This document shows, one piece after another, positions 2,266-29,298 of a stretch of 38,040 nt of DNA (positions within the stretch are counted from its first letter, which is position 1; each line of letters starts with the position of its first letter). The stretch is taken from UHGV virus genome UHGV-0192593; one strand, written 5' to 3'. The stretch comes from a virus. Position numbers and translations under genes: made by a program. The notes beneath the pieces were generated by a model. The model did no database searches. It was not told where the DNA came from and worked only from the letters and a program-made list of their open reading frames with translations.

Positions 2266-2679
2266 ATGATGCTATTAAGAGAGATAGATTTTCGTAGGAC
2301 TAGGCAGAATGCAAAAAGCATTTTGAGAAATTATCGTCGGTTGGAGCGGATTGCTGGTCGATCTAAGATTGATGTCCGCTCACCGATCATCACTGATATG
2401 CCTAAAACACCAAGTAACGGCAACAAGTCAGAAGATGCGATCATCCAGATGATGGATGCGGAGGCAGAAAGGGATGCTATTGTAGTAGCTCTTTTGGCGT
2501 TGGGAATAGATAGTCGCCAAGTTTTGTATTATTCGTATTGCACTGTTGATCGATACTCAAATGTTGGAATTGCTCAGCAAATGGGTTACTCGGTCAGGAC
2601 AATCGAAGACTACAAGGCAACCGCCTTGATTGAATTCGCTGAAGCCTATCGAAAAGGAAAATTAATAGAATATTGCTGA
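2266..2679 (+). CDS. arpU: ArpU-family phage late transcriptional regulator.
   Basis: Length, N-terminal pattern (EIDFRRTRQNAKSILRNYRRL) and its position directly upstream of the packaging module match ArpU/RinA-like late activators of Firmicutes phages. Confidence 0.65.
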   Translation: MMLLREIDFRRTRQNAKSILRNYRRLERIAGRSKIDVRSPIITDMPKTPSNGNKSEDAIIQMMDAEAERDAIVVALLALGIDSRQVLYYSYCTVDRYSNVGIAQQMGYSVRTIEDYKATALIEFAEAYRKGKLIEYC

Positions 2680-2837
2680 ATCGATGTGGTTTTTATGTGG
2701 AAATACTGCGGTTTTTACATGAATTTGCGTAGTATTATTGTAGTATCAACTATTGTAAATAACAGGGCGCACTCCTTTATGATGTGTTGGCAGACCTCCT
2801 TTCTGAATTTCATTTTCAGCGCCCTGTATTTAAACTA

Positions 2838-2916
2838 AGACGGCGACAAAAAAATTTAAAATAGAATGGAGTTGAATTCACTCCTTTTCTTCATTCGCTA
2901 GCCGTCTTTTTTGTAT
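2838..2916 (+). terminator. Compound rho-independent terminator downstream of arpU.
   Basis: Inner hairpin GGAGT-tgaattc-ACTCC at 2868-2884. Outer pairing AGACGGC (2838-2844) with GCCGTCT (2901-2907), followed by a run of six T. Confidence 0.45.
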
Positions 2917-3062
2917 TATGTCACTGTGGCGGAATAGGTAGACGCTTCAGAAAGGTATTCCGATTTTAGGGACTTAGGTGCTATGCAGGGTGCAAATCCT
3001 TGCCAGTGACTTTGGGAGTTGTCGATTGGATTACTCACATGATCTTTGATACTTCCTACTTA

Positions 3063-3087
3063 ACAGCCTTTCGGGGCTGTTTTTTTA
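3063..3087 (+). terminator. Rho-independent terminator immediately upstream of terS.
   Basis: ACAGCC-tttcgg-GGCTGT stem followed by seven T. Confidence 0.6.
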
Positions 3088-3127
3088 CATAGAATTACAA
3101 AACAAACACAGATTGCGAGGTGGGATC

Positions 3128-3715
3128 ATGGCAAAAGGAAAATACTTGGAATGGCTGACTAAAGAAGGCCTTCTGAAAATTGAGGGATGGGCAAGAGATG
3201 GTCTTACCGATGAACAAATTGCGGAAAAAATCGGTATACAGCGCCAAACTTTGTATGATTGGAAAAAAAAGTATTCTGACATTTCTTACGCCCTAAAAAA
3301 GGGCAAAGAGGTAATCGATAGGCAAGTTGAAAATGCTCTGCTTAAAAGAGCACTAGGATACGAATACACTGAGGATGAGTATGCTGTTTTTGAAATGGAA
3401 GAAAATGAATATTTTGATGCACTTCAAAGCTATATCTTGCATTTCAAACAATCGCATCCGGAAGCTACTGATGAAGACATTGATTTGGCGCGAGATAATT
3501 TTCCGCGTACAAAAAGAGTGCTAGTTAAGCAGAAGACAAAGGAAGTAGTTCCGGACACAACTGCACAAATCTTTTGGTTGAAGAACAGAAAACCTAATGA
3601 ATGGCGTGATAAGCAAGTTGTGCAACATGATGGAGAGGTAAAAGTTTCTAATCCTTATGCAGGTCTAACCACTGAGGAATTGAGGCGATTAGCTCATGGC
3701 CAAGACAGCACTTGA
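3128..3715 (+). CDS. terS: Terminase small subunit.
   Basis: N-terminal HTH-like region (LTDEQIAEKIGIQRQTLYDWKK), about 195 aa, directly upstream of and overlapping terL. GAGGTGGG RBS. The ATG at 3128 is preferred over the TTG at 3113. Confidence 0.75.
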   Translation: MAKGKYLEWLTKEGLLKIEGWARDGLTDEQIAEKIGIQRQTLYDWKKKYSDISYALKKGKEVIDRQVENALLKRALGYEYTEDEYAVFEMEENEYFDALQSYILHFKQSHPEATDEDIDLARDNFPRTKRVLVKQKTKEVVPDTTAQIFWLKNRKPNEWRDKQVVQHDGEVKVSNPYAGLTTEELRRLAHGQDST

Positions 3716-5158: not shown

Positions 5159-6691
5159 TTGACATCAAAAATCATTAGTGGTGGAACAAAAGGATCTGTT
5201 CCAGATAAGTACATCAAAAAGGACGTTAGCATCAAGAAAAAACGATCATTAAGATTTAAATCGGAAGGCGGACTTGATCAAAGAAGAGATTTGACGCAAT
5301 TGTCTCCGCCTTATGATATTGCTACTCTACGATCAATTACCGATATTTCCGACATTCTAAATCAATCTATTGAAGCTTATGTAACGAACGTGGCTGGATT
5401 TGGTTTTGGTTTACGGTATAAAGTAGATGATACCGAAGAAACAGCAGAAATGAAGGCAGAATGGAATCAATTGGATATTCTTCTTAAGGAGTTATCTTTT
5501 GAACGTCCGCCAAAAGAAGTAATTGAAGAGGTAATCCGACACGTTGAAGAATGCGGTAATGGCTACATTGAAGTTATTCGAAATTTGAAAGGTGACGTTG
5601 TAGGGATTGATTCTGTCAAACCTGAGTATATGACTGTTACGAAACTAAATAGAGTAGTAAATGCAGATGGATCGGAAATTAAAGTCCGCTATTTTGTATT
5701 CCGTGACTCTATGGATGATTCTGTAACAGAATCTGGTACGTGGTTTAAAACTTTTGGCGATCCTACACCCTTAAACGCAAACGGCAGCATTGCAGCAGAG
5801 GGAGAAGGAACTGCAACAGAAATTATTCATCTGAAAAATGGCGACTTTCAAGATCCGTATGGTAAACCTCGTTGGATTGGTCCTTTAATTAAGATTCTTG
5901 GAAATCGCAAAGCTGATGAACTGAATTATAGGTACTTCACACAAGGACGGCATATCCCACTGGCTATCACTCTAGAAAATGCCCAATTAACCGAAGAATC
6001 AGAAGCTACGTTACAAGCATATGCGAATGCTATTGGCGGAGAAGAAAATCAGCATAAGTTTTTATTGCTGGAAGCTGAGAAGGTGAGTCCTTCTGAAGAG
6101 ATGATAGGGGCGGGAGAAGATAAATTCAAGCCATCTATCAATATCGAGAAATTAGCAGACATTTTACAAAAAGATGCTTTGTTTCTTGAGTATGATGAAA
6201 ACGTCATTGAATCAGTTCTTGGGGCGTTCAGATTGCCGCCAATCTATGTTGCTCGGTCTAGTGATTACACGAGGGCTACTGCAGAAACGGCAAAGGAGCT
6301 GACGGAAGAACAAGTATTTCAACCCATGCGAGAATCTTACGATTGGCGTATTAATTCGCTGTTTAGGGAATATGAGTTTAAATACGTTGAAGTATTCCTA
6401 AAATCCTCCAATTTAGTGAATATGGAGGATGTGAAGGCAATTCTCACACCGGCTATCCAAGCAAATGCCGTGGCTCCAAATGATCTGAGAGATCTTCTTT
6501 CTAAAGCTCTAAATAAGCCACTAGAGGCATTTGAAGGTGACGAGTACAATTATCCGTTAAAGAATCAAACAGCCTCATCAGCTTTAAATCTTGGTGATTT
6601 AGACGTATCTAAAGCATATGGCGAAGGAGAGGTAAGTGAAGTTGCTGCAAGTATTCGACGTATGATCCGGAGTGTGAAGGCTGATGAATGA
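5159..6691 (+). CDS. Portal protein.
   Basis: 510 aa gene directly after terL. GGAGGTG RBS with a TTG start. Confidence 0.75.
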   Translation: MTSKIISGGTKGSVPDKYIKKDVSIKKKRSLRFKSEGGLDQRRDLTQLSPPYDIATLRSITDISDILNQSIEAYVTNVAGFGFGLRYKVDDTEETAEMKAEWNQLDILLKELSFERPPKEVIEEVIRHVEECGNGYIEVIRNLKGDVVGIDSVKPEYMTVTKLNRVVNADGSEIKVRYFVFRDSMDDSVTESGTWFKTFGDPTPLNANGSIAAEGEGTATEIIHLKNGDFQDPYGKPRWIGPLIKILGNRKADELNYRYFTQGRHIPLAITLENAQLTEESEATLQAYANAIGGEENQHKFLLLEAEKVSPSEEMIGAGEDKFKPSINIEKLADILQKDALFLEYDENVIESVLGAFRLPPIYVARSSDYTRATAETAKELTEEQVFQPMRESYDWRINSLFREYEFKYVEVFLKSSNLVNMEDVKAILTPAIQANAVAPNDLRDLLSKALNKPLEAFEGDEYNYPLKNQTASSALNLGDLDVSKAYGEGEVSEVAASIRRMIRSVKADE

Positions 6692-7505
6692 TGAAGAATT
6701 AATCAAAGCCGCTTTACAGCTAAAAAAAGAAGAAGATGAAGAATTAGCCAAGCTTTTAGAAAAGGCTGGCTTTTTATTTGTTCCGATTCTGCTCAAGTAT
6801 ATTTTGCAAACCGAAGATAAGATGGATGACACGCTACAGATTGACTATGAAGAAGTCTGGGAGAAAGTAAAGAAGTTCCTGGAGAAACGGAAAAAGAAGC
6901 CCACCAAGTTATCTATCAAGGTCATGCTTAGAGGAAGATCGTTTAAATCAAATATGAAAAATAAGGTCATTCCTGAATTAAGAAAGACTTTCTTTGGGTT
7001 ATTTGATGAATTTAACACTAAATATGATGGGCAAGAAGAATTTGATTATCAGACTAAACACTACCGAGACATCGAAAAATGGCTTAGGAAGCTGCCAAAA
7101 CTAATGAACGTTACTACAGAGAACGCTCTTGTAGGAGTGATTCAAGAATCTTTTGATGAAGGTAAAGGCATCCGATGGTTAGAAAGTAAGCTGTCTTCAC
7201 TCCCTGAATTCTCTCGCAATCGTGCCAGAACAACTGCGATCACTGAGGGATTAAGAATGTACTCTGGCAGCCAGTATGAAGCATTAATGCAAAACGATGC
7301 TGTTATAGGTATGACTTGGTACCACACTCATGGAATAAAAGAACCGAGAAAAGGTCACGAGGCAATGGACGGTCAAACAATCGCTAAAGGCGAGTACTTC
7401 ATCGTCAATGGCGAAAGTTGCCGTTATCCTCGTGACCCTATGTTATCTGCTAAAGAGTCGATTCATTGTCATTGCTTTGTTGTTCCTACTATTCAATCAT
7501 TTTGA
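6684..7505 (+). CDS. Minor head / head morphogenesis protein (Mu gpF / SPP1 gp7-like).
   Basis: Follows the portal gene. The C-terminal region (GHEAMDGQTIAKGEYFIVNGESCRYPRDPM...HCHCF) resembles the Phage_Mu_F family. Confidence 0.65.
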   Translation: MNDEELIKAALQLKKEEDEELAKLLEKAGFLFVPILLKYILQTEDKMDDTLQIDYEEVWEKVKKFLEKRKKKPTKLSIKVMLRGRSFKSNMKNKVIPELRKTFFGLFDEFNTKYDGQEEFDYQTKHYRDIEKWLRKLPKLMNVTTENALVGVIQESFDEGKGIRWLESKLSSLPEFSRNRARTTAITEGLRMYSGSQYEALMQNDAVIGMTWYHTHGIKEPRKGHEAMDGQTIAKGEYFIVNGESCRYPRDPMLSAKESIHCHCFVVPTIQSF

Positions 7506-7999
7506 GAAACTACCATAAGACTCACAAGCTCAACTTCATTTGTTTTAATTCCAAGGTCAAGAAATGGCAGATTCACATTTGATTCCAAAAATTTAACGTT
7601 TCTAAAAACAGCCGGGCTTTCAAGTGTATCCGGCAGATTTAGTCCATTCACAAATTCTTTGATTGATTGTAACAATAACTGCTGATCATACTTTAACAGT
7701 TCCTTACTCACAGGATAAAAACTATATTTATCCTTCATTTGTCTTAAGACAATACTGTATAAAGAATTTTCATTACGAAGGTTAGGAAAAGAGCGTCTAT
7801 ATTCAACCATGTTTTCTTCCCAAAAAATAGTCATTGGATCAAAGTTTTCATCGCTCAAGAATGTTGTGGCAGTAAAAAGTTTATTATCATAACTAAAGAC
7901 TAGTTCTCTTTTGTCTACTTCTATCCTTCTTTGTTCAAATAATAATTGATCAAAGATCCTTAGGGCATATTCTATAGCTTGTAATTTAATAAAATCCAT
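7493..7999 (-). CDS. Hypothetical protein of 168 aa. It is an antisense moron inside the head module.
   Basis: Only minus-strand gene within the structural block. GAGAGTAGG RBS 7 nt before the ATG. It has its own upstream TTGAAA-N16-TATAAT promoter and is AT-rich. Confidence 0.5.
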   Translation of the reverse strand: MDFIKLQAIEYALRIFDQLLFEQRRIEVDKRELVFSYDNKLFTATTFLSDENFDPMTIFWEENMVEYRRSFPNLRNENSLYSIVLRQMKDKYSFYPVSKELLKYDQQLLLQSIKEFVNGLNLPDTLESPAVFRNVKFLESNVNLPFLDLGIKTNEVELVSLMVVSQND

Positions 8000-23242: not shown

Positions 23243-23314
23243 TAAGTTTTGTTGCAATTGGAGCAATCGGCTTTCTAGCCGGTTGCTTTTTTAATAAAAG
23301 AAAAGGTGGTTAAT

Positions 23315-23758
23315 ATGGTGATTATTAATAATGGAATGTTATTGAACGAATTTCGTGGATTGTTAACAAATGGATATATTCAACTTTTTTTGTGGGTTGT
23401 AGTAGGTGATATTGTTACAGGTCTGTGTAAAGGGATTTTTGTGAAAGAGGCAAATAGCACAAAAGGGTTGTTAGGAATCGTTAAACACATGTTAGTTGTC
23501 TGCTTAGTAATTATTGCTTACCCATATTTAAAGATTATGAATCTTGAGACGTTTGCGACTGCATTCGTCTTTTTTTATATCGCAGTCTATGGGATTTCAA
23601 TTACTGAGAACTTAGGTCAATTAGGTGTACCGATTCCAAATTGGGTCAAAGAAAGACTATCAAAGTTACAGGATACAAATACTAATCCAAATGATAAGAG
23701 CACAAGTTCAGAGAAGGATTATGGCGATGGGCAGGAGTTCACAGAAAAGAAGGAGTAG
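23315..23758 (+). CDS. Holin.
   Basis: Three predicted transmembrane segments and a charged C-terminus. AAAGGTGG RBS. Lies immediately upstream of the endolysin. Confidence 0.65.
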   Translation: MVIINNGMLLNEFRGLLTNGYIQLFLWVVVGDIVTGLCKGIFVKEANSTKGLLGIVKHMLVVCLVIIAYPYLKIMNLETFATAFVFFYIAVYGISITENLGQLGVPIPNWVKERLSKLQDTNTNPNDKSTSSEKDYGDGQEFTEKKE

Positions 23759-23901: not shown

Positions 23902-24114
23902 TTAAGAAATTTCCCAGCGATTCGGGTCTGAATTATTTACAGAGTATCCGTTTTTAATCAGTTCATTTAGCATTTCATCATTATCCATGATGAAAAATGA
24001 AGGATTTATACCAACGGAAGAACCTGGAACTTTTAAATGGGTTTTCAAATGTAGATCTAGAAAATCCCAATCATAATTAGGGTTCTCTTGAGGTTTCTTA
24101 GGAGTTAATCCCAT
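23902..24114 (-). CDS. Hypothetical 70-aa protein encoded antisense between the holin and endolysin genes.
   Basis: GGGGTGA RBS 6 nt before the ATG on the minus strand. Its own downstream hairpin terminator lies at 23860-23893. Confidence 0.4.
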   Translation of the reverse strand: MGLTPKKPQENPNYDWDFLDLHLKTHLKVPGSSVGINPSFFIMDNDEMLNELIKNGYSVNNSDPNRWEIS

Positions 24115-24206
24115 AAGTTTTCACCCCTTTATAAATTATTTCAGTGGACCACTCACTGATAAGTAAAGTATATCAAATAAATAATAACAATAGGAGAAAA
24201 TATCAC

Positions 24207-25010
24207 ATGAGTATTGAAAATATGATTTCATGGATGACAAGCAAGGAAGGGCGAATCACTTATTCTATGACAAATCGCTTAGGACCGAACAGTTATGATT
24301 GTTCCTCCGCAGTGTTCTTCTCGCTGATCGCAGGAGGTTACTTGCCAAAAGGGTCAATGGGTAACACCGAAACATTATTTGCCATGAATGGGACATTCTT
24401 TAAGAAAATTAGTCGTGCAGAAGTGAGGCGTGGTGATATCTTTATCGCTGGGACTCCTGGGGCTTCTCATGGATCAGAAGGGCATACCGGTATCTTTTTA
24501 AGCAACAAGAGTTTTATTCATTGCAGCTATTACTGGAACGGAATTCACACAGACAGCCACGATTCTTACATGAGTACGCGATTACCGCATCATTTCTATC
24601 GAATTGTAGCTAGTGGTAGTGCAGATGTGAATACTGACAACAGTGCTCAAATGATTAAATTGGCGATTGATGGTCAGTGGGGACCACTCGTTACTTTACG
24701 TTTGCAAGAGTATTACAACACTACTCGTGATAAAGTGATTAGTCATCAGTACAAGCAAAAGTATAATAAAAATATCTATTCCGCAGAATTTGATATCACA
24801 TTGATCGGTTCTGATGTTATTAGAGCTATTCAAATGGGGCTAAAAGCTAAAGGATATTATACTGGTTCAATTGATGGTCTATGTGGTGAAGCAACAATCA
24901 AAGCGATGCAAAAAGCATTAGGAACAACGGTTGATGGTGTTATCAGTCCGCAATCTGATATGGTTAAGGCTTTGCAACGAGCATTGAACAATAACAAGCT
25001 TCCATGGTAA
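24207..25010 (+). CDS. Endolysin. N-terminal CHAP/NlpC-P60-type cysteine peptidase or amidase domain, with C-terminal peptidoglycan-binding repeats.
   Basis: YDCSS (Cys) and GHTGIF (His) motifs. Two C-terminal DGxxG...A.Q repeats. TAGGAGA RBS at the ATG at 24207; the track start at 24144 has no RBS. Confidence 0.7.
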   Translation: MSIENMISWMTSKEGRITYSMTNRLGPNSYDCSSAVFFSLIAGGYLPKGSMGNTETLFAMNGTFFKKISRAEVRRGDIFIAGTPGASHGSEGHTGIFLSNKSFIHCSYYWNGIHTDSHDSYMSTRLPHHFYRIVASGSADVNTDNSAQMIKLAIDGQWGPLVTLRLQEYYNTTRDKVISHQYKQKYNKNIYSAEFDITLIGSDVIRAIQMGLKAKGYYTGSIDGLCGEATIKAMQKALGTTVDGVISPQSDMVKALQRALNNNKLPW

Positions 25011-25035: not shown

Positions 25036-25148
25036 GTACATAGCTCTTACTTATTTACTCCGTACTGGGAATTGTCCGATTGTGAAATTTAAAAATGATC
25101 ATAATTATTAATAAATCAATATTTAGCTAATAAAATTAGCTTATTCAA

Positions 25149-25178
25149 TTGACGCTTGTGAAGCTAAAATGCTATAGT
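25149..25178 (+). promoter_or_regulatory. Sigma-70-like promoter for the ADP-ribosyltransferase operon.
   Basis: TTGACG-N18-TATAGT with a TGn extended -10, about 75 nt upstream of the start at 25257. Confidence 0.45.
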
Positions 25179-25256
25179 TATGTTGTAAAGGCAGAGTGTG
25201 AGTTATATCACGCTAGTTTTTTTCGTACATTTTATTAAATTGGTGGAAATATATTG

Positions 25257-25835
25257 ATGATAGGATATCATGGAACAAGTCAGAAATGTGCCACAGTTAT
25301 TATCGAATCGCAAACATTTAATTTCGATACCTTTGTAATTGCTGGTAATTTCAGGATCGGGAATGATCAGAGAATGCCTAATGATTTTGGTAATGGCATA
25401 TATATGTTCATCGATAATGAATCTTACAGCGGGGCAAAGTGTGCACGCAAATATGCTAACATCTTCAAAGAAAGACCCTCATCGGTATTAGAAATAAATA
25501 TAAGAGATGGTATAAAAGTTCTGGATTTCCAAGATGAAACAACTAGGAAGATTTTTATAGAGTTAAGAGAAAAGATATTTGATCGAATATACTATAATTA
25601 CAAAATCTCTGTTAAAGAAAGTGGAAGTAAAAAAAGGGCAAATTTAGACGGTTTAATAATCGAGTATTTAATTCAAACCATTTATAAAAATCAAATAGAT
25701 GCAGTTATGGGAGAAAGCTTTACTCCCTTTTATAACGAAGAACGCAGTATTTCTAATTTTCCTAATGGAAAAGAAATATGTTTGAGAAACACTGATTCCA
25801 TATGTTGGGAATTATGTAAGGAGGTAGAACTATGA
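25257..25835 (+). CDS. PARP / diphtheria-toxin-like (H-Y-E class) ADP-ribosyltransferase-fold protein.
   Basis: N-terminal GYHGT (compare DT SYHGT, PARP1 WHGS, DarT YHFT). GNGIYMF...SY...KYAN (compare PARP1 GKGIYFAD...SKSANY). IIEYLI (compare DT SVEYI, PARP1 YNEYIVY). GGTGGAAA RBS. Very AT-rich. Confidence 0.55.
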   Translation: MIGYHGTSQKCATVIIESQTFNFDTFVIAGNFRIGNDQRMPNDFGNGIYMFIDNESYSGAKCARKYANIFKERPSSVLEINIRDGIKVLDFQDETTRKIFIELREKIFDRIYYNYKISVKESGSKKRANLDGLIIEYLIQTIYKNQIDAVMGESFTPFYNEERSISNFPNGKEICLRNTDSICWELCKEVEL

Positions 25836-26113
25836 CTTACAAAAAAGTAATTTTAGATGAGAGTATCCTAGATCTTGATAGTTGGTTACCTCAAGAAGCT
25901 ATCAATGCGTTAACAGAAATAGTTTATGACATTAAAATAGATAGCCGAGAATTTGATTTTGAAATTATCAAGTTATCTGAAACATCATTAGAAAAAAATA
26001 ATCCTGAAGATACAAAAGGCGATTATTTTATTAAAGTAAATAAACTGAGATATTCTGAGATTAAATCTATGTCAGAATTTGAATACGGTATATTGATGCA
26101 GGAGGCTGCTTGA
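25832..26113 (+). CDS. Hypothetical 93-aa acidic protein, translationally coupled to the ADP-ribosyltransferase.
   Basis: ATGA overlap with the upstream gene. No recognisable motif. Confidence 0.5.
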   Translation: MTYKKVILDESILDLDSWLPQEAINALTEIVYDIKIDSREFDFEIIKLSETSLEKNNPEDTKGDYFIKVNKLRYSEIKSMSEFEYGILMQEAA

Positions 26114-26562
26114 TGGCTGCAATAACTTTCAATGATTATATTATAGAAAAATCTATTTATAGTACAAATCCTAGTTTTGAACAACCACATGAAGAATACG
26201 GATTAGTAATAGAAGAAGATGTAAGTGCTGAAGTAGGTATAAAAAATGATAAAGGCTATGTTAAAATTAAACTTTTGTTAAATAAAAATGATGATGTGAA
26301 GTATATTAATAATACGCCTTTCTTTTTAGAAGTTGTAATAAGAGGAATATTCTCTCATGAATATGAAACAGAAGAAAAAGCGCATTTAAAAAGCCTCTTG
26401 GGTAGCAATGCATTAGCAATTCTGTATCCTTATCTTAGATCTTATGTATCATTTTTAACAGCAAACACAAATCAATTTCCTACCTATATTCTTCCAGTAG
26501 TAAATTTTGCGAAACTAATATCTGATGAAGAAAAAATACATTTTATTGGCTTTGATGATTAA
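26110..26562 (+). CDS. Hypothetical 150-aa protein, third gene of the ADP-ribosyltransferase operon.
   Basis: ATGA overlap with the upstream gene. No macrodomain-like motifs. Confidence 0.5.
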   Translation: MMAAITFNDYIIEKSIYSTNPSFEQPHEEYGLVIEEDVSAEVGIKNDKGYVKIKLLLNKNDDVKYINNTPFFLEVVIRGIFSHEYETEEKAHLKSLLGSNALAILYPYLRSYVSFLTANTNQFPTYILPVVNFAKLISDEEKIHFIGFDD

Positions 26563-26594
26563 AAAGACCCTAGCAAAAGCTAAGGTCTTTTTTC
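26562..26594. terminator. Bidirectional terminator between convergent operons.
   Basis: AAAAGACC-ctagcaaaagctaa-GGTCTTTTTT, with A or T runs on both sides. Confidence 0.5.
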
Positions 26595-26839
26595 ATTGCT
26601 TCAAATTCAATCATAATCTTCGTCTTACCAATCACCGAATATTTTTTCACAACAAACTGCTTACGATCGTTAAACTCACCAGCAACCACAATCTGCATCC
26701 CTTCGTCAACATCAGCAAGGAAATTCAAACTATGTGCTGCAATTAGACAATTTACATTATCCAGCGAGAACCGAACCAAAGGGGTCCTCGACATTTTCAG
26801 CACTCGTATCTTCGAAACTACACCTTTCAATGACTTCAT
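26570..26839 (-). CDS. Hypothetical protein (weakly OB-fold-like).
   Basis: GGAGG RBS 8 nt before the internal ATG (MKSLKG). The longer track ORF overlaps the upstream gene extensively. Confidence 0.35.
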   Translation of the reverse strand: MKSLKGVVSKIRVLKMSRTPLVRFSLDNVNCLIAAHSLNFLADVDEGMQIVVAGEFNDRKQFVVKKYSVIGKTKIMIEFEAMKKDLSFC

Positions 26840-27026
26840 GATGATCGCCTCCATATGGTTGTACATAGTAATTAAAATCAGTTTTCCCTAAAGTAAGTTT
26901 GACATAATGATCAACGCAACGAGTTCCAAAAACGCACTCTTGAGATTCAGAGATCGAATCCGGAAATTCTTCTAAAAACTCAGAGTGGGAGATGTATCCT
27001 TGTTCATACTGACTGATTACATTCAT
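26757..27026 (-). CDS. Hypothetical 89-aa protein coupled to the YolD-like gene.
   Basis: ATGA overlap with the YolD-like gene. It overlaps the next ORF by about 80 nt in another frame, so one of the two may be spurious or a frameshifted remnant. Confidence 0.3.
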   Translation of the reverse strand: MNVISQYEQGYISHSEFLEEFPDSISESQECVFGTRCVDHYVKLTLGKTDFNYYVQPYGGDHHEVIERCSFEDTSAENVEDPFGSVLAG

Positions 27027-27391
27027 GAGAGATCAAACCATTTCAATTCTCCTTGATAAAATTCTACATTTCGAATTTCCTCATATTCAACGAGAGTAGA
27101 ATCAACGTAAATTCCTATTTCATTATGCCCAGAAAGGCGGCCTACAATGTCCGGCATGAATTTGTCATTCTGTGTATAGTTAAGCTGGACAGCAATCTTT
27201 TTATTCTTCAAAAGAGCCTCTTGTAAAAATTCTCCAATCTCTTCAATTTCCATTTCTGGTTTAGGCGGATAAGTGTAAGCTCGTTCCTCTTCAACTTTAT
27301 TTACACTTGTTGTATGTTCCGATAAAAAGAATCCTATCCATTTTAATTTTTTCCGGTCCTCGTAAGGTTTAATCATTCCCATAATTATCAC
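27023..27391 (-). CDS. YolD-like protein.
   Basis: KLKWIGFFLSEH and KPEMEIEEIGEFLQEAL closely parallel B. subtilis SPbeta YolD (NIKWTSMMLPEH, KPELDEQQIEEMNQVLMEAL). Confidence 0.6.
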   Translation of the reverse strand: MIIMGMIKPYEDRKKLKWIGFFLSEHTTSVNKVEEERAYTYPPKPEMEIEEIGEFLQEALLKNKKIAVQLNYTQNDKFMPDIVGRLSGHNEIGIYVDSTLVEYEEIRNVEFYQGELKWFDLS

Positions 27392-27484
27392 TCCTCACGG
27401 AAATTATACGAACGCTTGTTCGATTTGTAAAGCGAACAGATCTTTAAATTGTAACGTGAGAACGAGTAGAAAAGATGAGAATTT

Positions 27485-27508
27485 CTGGTGATAGTTTCGG
27501 TGATAGCG
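27485..27508. repeat. Direct repeat copy 1 (CTGGTGATAGTTTCGGTGATAGCG), candidate integrase arm site P.
   Basis: Contains two GGTGATAG half-repeats. Matches 27749-27772 at 21 of 24 positions. Confidence 0.5.
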
Positions 27509-27748
27509 AAAAGAAAATATCGAAATGATAGAAAAGAAAAATTAGAGGGGAAACGTTGATATAATGGTATTTTTAAAATAGAGAAATACTAGAAAAAGGG
27601 TAGAATGTATAAGAAAAACATGTTCGCATTGCTTGGCAAACCAGGCTTTGAAGAGCTTGCAAAAGAATTGAACGAACGTCTATAAATCAATACTTCTACC
27701 ACTTCTATAAATTTGTGGTGAACGAAACATGTTCGCTTTAGTTCGTAA

Positions 27749-27772
27749 CTGGTGATAGTTTTGGTGATAGTG
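27749..27772. repeat. Direct repeat copy 2 (CTGGTGATAGTTTTGGTGATAGTG), candidate integrase arm site P'.
   Basis: Same GGTGATAG-N3-GGTGATAG architecture as copy 1, located 264 bp downstream. Confidence 0.5.
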
Positions 27773-27781
27773 ACAGATTAA

Positions 27782-27800
27782 AAGCACTCATTGCGAGTGC
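27782..27800 (-). terminator. Hairpin spanning the int stop codon.
   Basis: AGCACTC-attgc-GAGTGCT, followed by TTTTAAT on the minus strand. Confidence 0.35.
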
Positions 27801-29011
27801 TTTTTTCTTTCGCTTTCGATGTAGTTTTCGAACTGTTCCATAGACCTTTTTTTAACCTCTGGTGAAATATGGGCATAGATTTGAGTTGTTGAAATATCCT
27901 TGTGACCAAGAAAGTCTTTGATATCTTCTAAGGACAGACCAGCTTGCCGAGACCTGACTGCAAATGTATGCCTGCCATCGTGAACTCTAATTTTCGGCAA
28001 ATTAGCTTTTTCAGCAATCCGATTAAATGCACCATTCACTGATCGATCACGGACGATTTTCCCTTTGTATCTCTTACTGGTTTGTAAGAAGATAAATTGT
28101 TCTCCATCTTCAGTGGAAGGGAAGGTACCAAAGATGTTTAAGATATGATTTCTGAAGGCAAGCAGGGCTTGTTTACTTCTTTTGGTCATTGGCATGCTTC
28201 TGACTCCTGCCGGTGTTTTCGGATCGTCTGTAATAATTGCATTGACGTTTTCGCCTTTTTCAATTGCTCCTAAACGTTCTCTTTCAATGCTTATCATATT
28301 TCCTCCAAAGTCAATATCTTGCCACTGTAGGCCCATTACTTCTGATTTTCTCAATCCTTGATCGAATATTAACAGGAAGAAAGGGTACCATAAGACCTCA
28401 GATTCCTTTTTTGCGAAATCCAGAAACCTATCTGCTTGCTGCAAATCGTAGTATCTGACAGATTCCTTTTTCTCAATCATTCTTGGAAATTCAACAAATT
28501 GAGTAGGATTCTCTTTTATATATCCTAATTGAATTGCTTTTTTAAAAGCATTGCTGAGAGTAGCATTTACGCTTTTGGCAGTAGTGATGGACAACCCTTG
28601 ACCACTTCGACCTAGTCCTTTCTTATTTAGCAGCATATTAATGAACTTCTGATGATTGGCTCGTGTGTATTTGTTTAAAGAATATTTTCCAATATAGGGA
28701 ATTATATACATCCTTATGTTGGCTCTATGAACTACTCTTGTACCTTCTTTGACCGCTTGTTTATAATTAGTTACCCAATCCTCAAGAAATTCTTCTATTG
28801 TTAAGTTCCGAGGATTTTCTTTGAAATATTCATCGGATGCTATTTTTCCTTCAATTATTTTTGCATAACTATTTGCTTCATCAAATGAATTGAATCCTTT
28901 TTTGTGTATCTTGTTTTGTTTTCCTGTTCCGGGATTGATTCCATTAGAAATGAAAACTTCATATCTATATTGTTTTGCTTTCTTCAGATAGTATTTTTTT
29001 ATAGAAGCCAT
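27788..29011 (-). CDS. int: Tyrosine site-specific integrase.
   Basis: C-terminal catalytic signature HDGRHTF...LGHKDISTTQIYAH. The ATG at 29011 overlaps the stop of the upstream small ORF (TGATG). Confidence 0.85.
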   Translation of the reverse strand: MASIKKYYLKKAKQYRYEVFISNGINPGTGKQNKIHKKGFNSFDEANSYAKIIEGKIASDEYFKENPRNLTIEEFLEDWVTNYKQAVKEGTRVVHRANIRMYIIPYIGKYSLNKYTRANHQKFINMLLNKKGLGRSGQGLSITTAKSVNATLSNAFKKAIQLGYIKENPTQFVEFPRMIEKKESVRYYDLQQADRFLDFAKKESEVLWYPFFLLIFDQGLRKSEVMGLQWQDIDFGGNMISIERERLGAIEKGENVNAIITDDPKTPAGVRSMPMTKRSKQALLAFRNHILNIFGTFPSTEDGEQFIFLQTSKRYKGKIVRDRSVNGAFNRIAEKANLPKIRVHDGRHTFAVRSRQAGLSLEDIKDFLGHKDISTTQIYAHISPEVKKRSMEQFENYIESERKKHSQ

Positions 29012-29298
29012 CAATCATCATTCCTTAATATGGATTCTGGTAGTTCAATCATCTTTGGTTTATACCAACCTTTTTCATACAACTTATCAAGACCTAATTG
29101 TTTTTCTTCATAAGTGAAGGCAGGTACTTTTCTGACTTTTCCCGTTTCTAAATCATGTTTTATTCGCAATTGATCCTGTAATATTTCTTGATATTCCTCC
29201 TCGCTGTAATCAGGATTTGTCAAAACAGGGAATATTCCGACGGTTGGAACATCTTTCTTTAATCTCTCTCTCAATTTGTATGGATTCATAAAAATCAA
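29011..29298 (-). CDS. Hypothetical 95-aa protein, translationally coupled upstream of int.
   Basis: Its stop TGA overlaps the int ATG. No recognisable motif. Confidence 0.45.
   Translation of the reverse strand: MIFMNPYKLRERLKKDVPTVGIFPVLTNPDYSEEEYQEILQDQLRIKHDLETGKVRKVPAFTYEEKQLGLDKLYEKGWYKPKMIELPESILRNDD

Follow-up and report, generated by a model that had tools for sequence, protein, structure and literature searches.

A probable CmdTAC-type toxin–antitoxin–chaperone cassette in a temperate Enterococcus phage

CmdTAC, also known as PD-T4-9, is a toxin–antitoxin–chaperone (TAC) defence system (Vassallo et al. 2022, PMC9519451). Its toxin CmdT attaches ADP-ribose to the N6 position of adenine at GA dinucleotides in single-stranded RNA, by which translation is blocked; when a phage capsid protein dislodges CmdC, the chaperone, degradation of the antitoxin CmdA through ClpP follows (Vassallo, Doering & Laub 2024, PMC11618068). 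Independent support for the system has been provided by Mets et al. 2024 (bioRxiv 10.1101/2024.02.24.581848). The existence of CmdTAC homologues in Gram-positive species has already been stated (PMC11618068), and the system is called where CmdT and CmdC occur within two genes of each other (PMC9519451; PMC11618068). Here, a block of three genes (g1, g2, and g3; positions 25149–26594) in the virus genome UHGV-0192593 is described, of which a stretch of 38,040 nucleotides was analysed (the window). With a probability estimated at roughly 85%, this block represents a CmdTAC/PD-T4-9-type TAC module that is carried as self-promoted cargo in the slot between lysin and integrase of a temperate Enterococcus phage. 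The original prediction, made from the sequence alone, had envisaged a new module consisting of an ADP-ribosyltransferase (ART) and two unknown partners, with a target regarded as unknown. The CmdTAC-type identity was not seen at that stage because the SecB-like chaperone was missed and the catalytic glutamate was misassigned. The cassette is a divergent Gram-positive representative of a family already described and not a new kind of system, and for the E. coli toxin the target has been determined as described above.

The three open reading frames (ORFs) lie tightly packed on the plus strand and encode proteins of 192, 93, and 149 amino acids, which bears out the predicted three-gene operon. 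The translational coupling by ATGA overlaps that had been proposed for both junctions applies to g1 and g2 (25832–25835), whereas g2 and g3 are joined by TGATG with an overlap of 1 nt and the g3 ATG at 26113. An ATG is the likely start of g1, since the homologues all begin with MIGYHGT; a TTG is present one codon upstream. The arrangement used for calling CmdTAC was found here, as the contiguous, overlapping genes run from the toxin through the small ORF to the SecB-like gene.

The g3 protein, in which no motif had been recognised originally, matches the Pfam SecB family (E = 2.4e-9, 37.7 bits at a cut-off of 26) and, weakly, the NCBIfam SecB models. It is also detected by the PADLOC models for the CmdTAC chaperone, PD-T4-9_C (8.5e-14 and 7e-8), the better value being on par with the 7.5e-13 obtained for E. 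coli CmdC itself. BLASTP aligned g3 and E. coli CmdC with 27% identity (E = 4e-6), and a further match was found to phrog_21664 (3e-23). As judged from these profile and pairwise comparisons, g3 is a chaperone of the SecB-like kind and a homologue of CmdC. A housekeeping SecB is not expected in a Gram-positive host.

The sole direct match of g1 was phrog_14664, a family of unassigned function. Homologues were found in Enterococcus, Streptococcus, and lactobacilli, and a full HMMER scan retrieved 251 representative clusters; in a taxonomic look-up of clusters, unnamed metagenomic proteins made up most of the representatives. The conservation counts given below refer to 129 divergent homologues of 22–47% identity. 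An AlphaFold2 model built from a 24-sequence alignment reached a mean predicted local distance difference test (pLDDT) score of 92.3, and Foldseek searches with this model against the PDB and against viral models consistently returned ART folds, with the catalytic domains of diphtheria toxin, exotoxin A, and PARP as best structural matches. The histidine and tyrosine of the ART triad are H5, located in GYHGT on strand 2–8 and conserved in 124 of 125 homologues, and Y49, located in GNGIYMF on strand 48–52 and conserved in all 128; both had been named in the original prediction and stand, as does the ART assignment itself. The predicted second tyrosine also finds support, position 66 being aromatic in 125/129 sequences, and G47 and G132 are invariant. 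The third residue had to be reassigned. The glutamate proposed as catalytic, E136 in IIEYLI, lies in a helix (131–142) and is a glutamate in 107/129 homologues, whereas E173 is conserved in 125/128 and located on strand 171–176 (SNFPNGKEICLR at the strand start) within the motif SNFPNGxExC[LI]R. E173 is taken as the triad glutamate because it is near-invariant and strand-borne, and E136 was rejected as helical and less conserved. A long helical insert (residues 94–142) separates β-strands of the fold. Fold and residue conservation together support the assignment of g1 to the diphtheria-toxin/PARP class (H-Y-E) of predicted ADP-ribosyltransferases.

The relationship of g1 to PARP is one at the fold or superfamily level. 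The Pfam PARP family (PF00644) was matched weakly by 19/129 homologues (best E = 9.7e-6), and g1 itself gave no match to it at E ≤ 1, the gathering threshold not being reached. When the g1 family profile was compared with the PDB sequences, only non-significant matches to PARP14 and a haemagglutinin were obtained, of which PARP14 aligned to the family on HGT and GxGxYF.

For a comparison with CmdT, the authentic E. coli cmdTAC locus was identified in E. coli genomes via the published Y41A mutagenesis primer, and PADLOC classified the recovered locus as PD-T4-9 (A 4e-97, B 3e-38, C 7e-61). In the locus recovered from E. coli N2250 it occupies positions 2405–3618 within a P2-like prophage, flanked by replication endonuclease/DinI-like genes on one side and by the portal gene on the other; both CmdT and CmdA are labelled "hypothetical protein" by RefSeq. 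A tblastn search with E. coli CmdT yielded four diverse relatives, one in a Vibrio phage, two on Acinetobacter plasmids, and one on a Psychrobacter plasmid, with a small ORF and then a SecB gene behind each of them. The Acinetobacter and Psychrobacter copies reside on small plasmids beside other toxin–antitoxin (TA) pairs and have antitoxins of roughly double length (139–149 amino acids). A search of viral contigs with E. coli CmdT returned only near-identical copies. From the side of g1, tblastn found no match on plasmids and, among phages, only Lactobacillus phage LJ; a search for related loci with the 24-sequence g1 alignment recovered only Lactobacillales, and a further homologue search started from the large g1 alignment brought in hardly any new sequences, none of them Gram-negative.

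Profile comparison connected the two groups. Aligned by hhalign against the single CmdT sequence, the g1 family scored a probability of 38%, and against an alignment of six Gram-negative CmdT sequences it scored 93% (E = 3.4e-7); the link became convincing only once the six-sequence alignment had replaced the single sequence. A second hhalign run (82%, E = 1.1e-5) paired GYHGT with GFHxC and LGxGxYxF with LxQGYYFW, and Y49 of g1 therefore falls on Y41 of CmdT, which is experimentally essential. In a global joint alignment, E173 was placed on the conserved glutamine of the CmdT motif TRQQxCV, in keeping with the HY-[E,D,Q] triad described for CmdT (PMC11618068). In the reverse direction, a hidden Markov model (HMM) of the g1 family detected the Psychrobacter and Acinetobacter CmdT proteins (4e-7 to 8e-4). 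The PADLOC toxin models PD-T4-9_A were matched by 7/129 members of the g1 family (best E = 1.6e-6), and g1 itself gave no match to either of the two models at E ≤ 1. The identity of g1 and CmdT is only 10–16%; the profile results indicate that the g1 family and CmdT are distantly homologous.

The second protein, g2, was predicted to be acidic and indeed has an isoelectric point of 4.39. In an alignment of seven homologues its first approximately 30 residues (LDESILDLDSWLPQEAI) are conserved among Enterococcus and Streptococcus, whereas the C-terminal half varies and contains many aromatic residues, and the protein ends in QEAA. A CmdTAC antitoxin is marked by helices at the N-terminus, a disordered C-terminus that confers chaperone addiction, and a ClpXP-type -LAA end. 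All 15 middle genes whose C-termini were examined, from Gram-positive and Gram-negative loci alike, end in -AA or -VA, among them E. coli CmdA with -LAA, which serves as a ClpXP tag (PMC11618068). Searches of Pfam, NCBIfam, and PADLOC revealed no family match of g2 except a weak one to PADLOC PDC-S05 (E = 0.0026); the antitoxin is highly variable, as the CmdTAC papers note. Its sequence features suggest that g2 carries the hallmarks of a putative chaperone-addicted, -AA-tagged antitoxin.

The order of toxin, small ORF, and SecB was retained in every intact locus examined. The triad also occurs in Nosocomiicoccus, Streptococcus, Fructobacillus, and Limosilactobacillus, and Lactobacillus phage LJ shows the succession lysin, TAC, integrase. 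In Streptococcus suis the chromosomal triad is flanked by an approximately 1450-amino-acid ResIII/Eco57I-type enzyme and a TIR_2-domain protein, a neighbourhood that looks like a defence island. The sole exception to the intact triad was a locus cut by an IS110 element. At such loci an intact toxin homologue, a g2 remnant of 52 amino acids, and the IS110 transposase are found without a SecB gene, and this toxin homologue is the family member with the clearest Pfam PARP match.

The window is derived from a temperate Enterococcus siphophage whose structural genes are 95% identical to those of Enterococcus phage EG-TP1. Along the window, the holin (23306–23758) and endolysin (24144–25010) genes are followed by the three-gene operon, three small minus-strand ORFs, and the integrase gene (27788–29014). 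In blastn comparisons, the similarity to EG-TP1 breaks off directly upstream of the operon and restarts at its end (Table 1), and the corresponding interval of EG-TP1 contains unrelated genes instead. The EG-TP1 slot (6157–7983) is annotated with a membrane protein (gp33), a "SepS25B protein" (gp34), and a small hypothetical protein (gp35). Since EG-TP1 carries other cargo at the same place, the post-lysin position is an exchange hotspot. Conversely, the window shares only the region 25116–26565 with prophages of E. faecium (79% identity) and E. faecalis (76%), in which the cassettes directly follow unrelated endolysins, one of the Amidase_2 and the other of the GH25-LysM type. The exchange in EG-TP1 and the restriction of the E. 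faecium and E. faecalis similarity to the block therefore characterise it as a mobile cassette, extending from promoter to terminator, in a variable cargo slot. The block behind the lysin is a self-contained cargo cassette of the toxin/immunity type. A megablast search with the cassette DNA against phages gave no match.

That the block is markedly more AT-rich than the phage backbone was also confirmed: its G + C content is 29.5% compared to 37.5% for the window, of which no other 1.5-kb stretch is lower. Its predicted location between endolysin and attP holds insofar as it follows holin and endolysin and precedes the integrase; attP was not located in the window, nor was a tRNA gene found there. 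The likely place of attP is the untranslated stretch 27392–27787 beside a strong hairpin at 27780–27804 (AAAAGCACTC-attgc-GAGTGCTTTT followed by a T-run), which overlaps the integrase gene at its 3′ end. The three small overlapping minus-strand ORFs between cassette and integrase (26570–27391; 98, 89, and 122 amino acids) are 93% identical to EG-TP1 at the DNA level, and two of them match phrog_15227 and phrog_16307, both function-unassigned. A 70-amino-acid ORF on the minus strand between holin and endolysin (23902–24114) matches phrog_7409, likewise function-unassigned, with E = 1e-11.

The signals framing the operon are included in Table 1. The promoter, which is of the sigma-70 type, had been part of the original prediction, and neither of its hexamers differs in the copies from E. 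faecium and E. faecalis: ATTGAC and CTAAAATGCTATAGTT are retained in all three cassettes, which are 76–79% identical overall and have divergent flanks. Promoter-like sites were not more numerous in this AT-rich region than in shuffled controls, and the real support for the promoter thus lies in the conservation of its hexamers across the copies. The ribosome-binding site of g1 was read from the sequence, and AATTGGTGGA is invariant in the three copies. At the place of the palindrome upstream of the -35 hexamer, the cassettes of E. faecium and E. faecalis likewise retain a palindrome, and the element is a possible operator, perhaps for autoregulation by an antitoxin complex. A hairpin with T-run in the leader, flagged as terminator-like, was rejected as a significant element, with a fold z-score of -1.4 and its presence in the E. 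faecium but deletion from the E. faecalis copy. The predicted bidirectional terminator, by contrast, is well supported by RNA folding on both strands (-15.9 kcal/mol on the plus and -20.1 kcal/mol on the minus strand; z = -4.6 and -5.7; 0/200 shuffles as good), and a U-run follows the hairpin on either strand. The final codons of the converging ORF 26570–26866 (minus) are encoded within this shared hairpin.

Table 1. Features of the TAC cassette and its surroundings in the window.
Feature	Position	Strand	Remarks
Cargo cassette relative to EG-TP1	25043..26559	+	blastn similarity breaks off at 25042 and restarts at 26560
Perfect inverted repeat AGCTAAT-aaa-ATTAGCT	25125..25141		7-bp arms; 8 bp upstream of -35; sequence reading
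Sigma-70-type promoter TTGACG-N18-TATAGT	25149..25178	+	extended -10 TGcTATAGT; 10/12 consensus positions + TG
Leader hairpin with T-run	25195..25222	+	between -10 and ribosome-binding site; flagged terminator-like; rejected
Ribosome-binding site GGTGGA of g1	25242..25247	+	sequence reading
g1, putative CmdT-like ADP-ribosyltransferase toxin	25257..25835	+	192 aa; predicted triad H5, Y49, E173; aromatic Y66
g2, putative antitoxin (CmdA analogue)	25832..26113	+	93 aa, acidic
g3, predicted SecB-like TA chaperone (CmdC analogue)	26113..26562	+	149 aa
Bidirectional intrinsic terminator	26561..26595		common to cassette and converging minus-strand ORF 26570-26866

A likely mode of action can be derived from the E. 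coli system, from which the formation of a complex, the trigger, the protease, RNA as the target, and the defence phenotype itself are transferred by analogy. In the lysogen, g1, g2, and g3 would be held in an inert complex as in E. coli CmdTAC. The conserved N-terminal segment of g2 would bind and neutralise the toxin and might also aid its folding, whereas its variable, aromatic-rich tail ending in -AA would depend on the chaperone and otherwise become a protease substrate; g3 would hold this C-terminal tail. Upon superinfection, an abundant structural protein of the incoming phage would compete for the g3 chaperone, the freed g2 antitoxin would be degraded by a Clp protease, and the released g1 would use nicotinamide adenine dinucleotide (NAD+) to ADP-ribosylate single-stranded RNA, so that translation would be blocked and the infection aborted.

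Several observations weigh against equating the cassette with CmdTAC. Direct searches of Pfam, NCBIfam, and PADLOC with g1 gave no significant match, and BLASTP comparison of g1 with E. coli CmdT was not significant either; the link between the two consists of profile–profile and transitive evidence, and the hhalign alignments cover residues 1–118, i.e., the N-terminal 60–65% or so of the protein. A segment with the pattern RxNxDGxxxE (residues 127–136) is strongly conserved in the g1 family and has no counterpart in the Gram-negative CmdT proteins. With this clade-specific segment and a glutamate in place of the glutamine of E. coli CmdT, the substrate specificity could therefore differ. Between g2 and CmdA no sequence similarity was detected (BLASTP not significant), and the single-sequence AlphaFold2 model of g2 was uninformative (pLDDT 52). 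Moreover, the Gram-positive members of the family are known from sequence, and a prophage-borne system that is triggered by structural proteins would somehow have to spare its own phage.

The most serious alternative retains the TAC architecture but assigns to g1 a substrate other than that of E. coli CmdT, such as DNA (as for DarT), structured RNA or tRNA, protein, or RNA in another sequence context. Both the exchange of glutamine for glutamate at the third triad position and the conserved, clade-specific RxNxDGxxxE helix would fit such a change, as would the low identity of g1 and CmdT, and the ART fold in general serves many substrates. This scenario is regarded as a minority possibility, well behind a CmdT-like activity. 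Speculatively, the Lactobacillales/Enterococcus clade of CmdT-like toxins defined by H-Y-E and RxNxDGxxxE may differ from E. coli CmdT in its nucleic-acid target or sequence specificity, and its SecB-like sensor may detect the structural proteins of competing enterococcal phages while ignoring those of its own prophage. In that case, the system would be a prophage-encoded superinfection-exclusion determinant of relevance to enterococcal phage therapy.

Rather improbable is a plain addiction or stabilisation TA system, or a stress-responsive TAC as in Mycobacterium, that plays no anti-phage role and merely hitch-hikes with the prophage. TAC systems were at first investigated in contexts other than phage defence (PMC9519451; PMC11618068), and the occurrence of Gram-negative relatives on small plasmids beside other TA pairs is in line with such a function. 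However, both CmdTAC systems tested so far defend against phage (PMC11618068; bioRxiv 10.1101/2024.02.24.581848), and the cassette resides in a variable prophage cargo slot, with the S. suis copy in what resembles a defence island. An NAD+-degrading enzyme of the RES/MbcT type (NADase or phosphorylase), killing by NAD+ depletion, is very unlikely, since conservation falls on H, Y, and E in the arrangement of diphtheria toxin and PARP rather than R-E-S, no RES domain match was found and the similarity is at the fold level only, the profile link leads to CmdT as a demonstrated transferase, and an Xre-type antitoxin is not present.

In enterococci, the cassette is a candidate resistance determinant against therapeutic phages. 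The findings also point to an annotation gap, as this divergent Gram-positive CmdTAC branch is not called by at least one standard model set, the PADLOC toxin HMMs, and public records carry its proteins as "hypothetical" or "DUF3990". Among unrelated Enterococcus and Lactobacillus prophages, the branch travels from one post-lysin slot to another as an approximately 1.45-kb promoter-to-terminator cassette. For enzymology, g1 may be a naturally occurring mRNA ADP-ribosyltransferase with an H-Y-E triad that can be set against the H-Y-Q enzyme of E. coli. A new category of system is not opened by these results.

Among known systems, diphtheria toxin, exotoxin A, and PARP share with g1 the motif order H...GxGxY(F)...E, but these multidomain proteins are secreted or eukaryotic and have EF2 or other proteins as their targets, whereas g1 is a stand-alone domain. 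RES-Xre, MbcTA, and ParST differ from the g1 system by their R-E-S residue set, by NAD+ phosphorylase/NADase or Prs-modifying chemistry, and by Xre/COG5642 antitoxins that act with no chaperone. DarTG resembles it in having an ART-fold toxin within a TA system used in phage defence; in Pfam, NCBIfam, and PADLOC searches, however, g2 and g3 gave no macrodomain match and g1 no DarT (DUF4433) match, in agreement with the earlier statement that the operon is not a canonical DarT–DarG pair. HigBAC, MqsRAC, and HicAB-SecB, including Rv1955–1957 of M. tuberculosis, are likewise three-gene operons with a SecB-like chaperone, and their antitoxins are chaperone-addicted through a C-terminal extension and a protease tag, but the antitoxins are canonical helix-turn-helix proteins plus a ChAD element and the toxins HigB, MqsR, and HicA are RNases, unlike the ADP-ribosyltransferase predicted for g1. 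From CmdTAC of E. coli ECOR22 and O112ab:H26 the locus is distinguished by a toxin that is missed by the PADLOC PD-T4-9_A models and carries glutamate for glutamine and the RxNxDGxxxE helix, by a g2 that is unrelated to CmdA in sequence, and by a Gram-positive host. It agrees with this system in the order of toxin, antitoxin, and chaperone and in the protein lengths (192/93/149 amino acids here, 192/77/129 in E. coli), in a toxin whose ART fold is of the type seen in diphtheria toxin and exotoxin A and whose triad is H-Y-[E/D/Q], in a small variable predicted antitoxin ending in -AA, in a SecB-like chaperone matching PD-T4-9_C, and, with the E. coli copies residing in a P2-like prophage (Mets et al. 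2024), in being prophage-borne.

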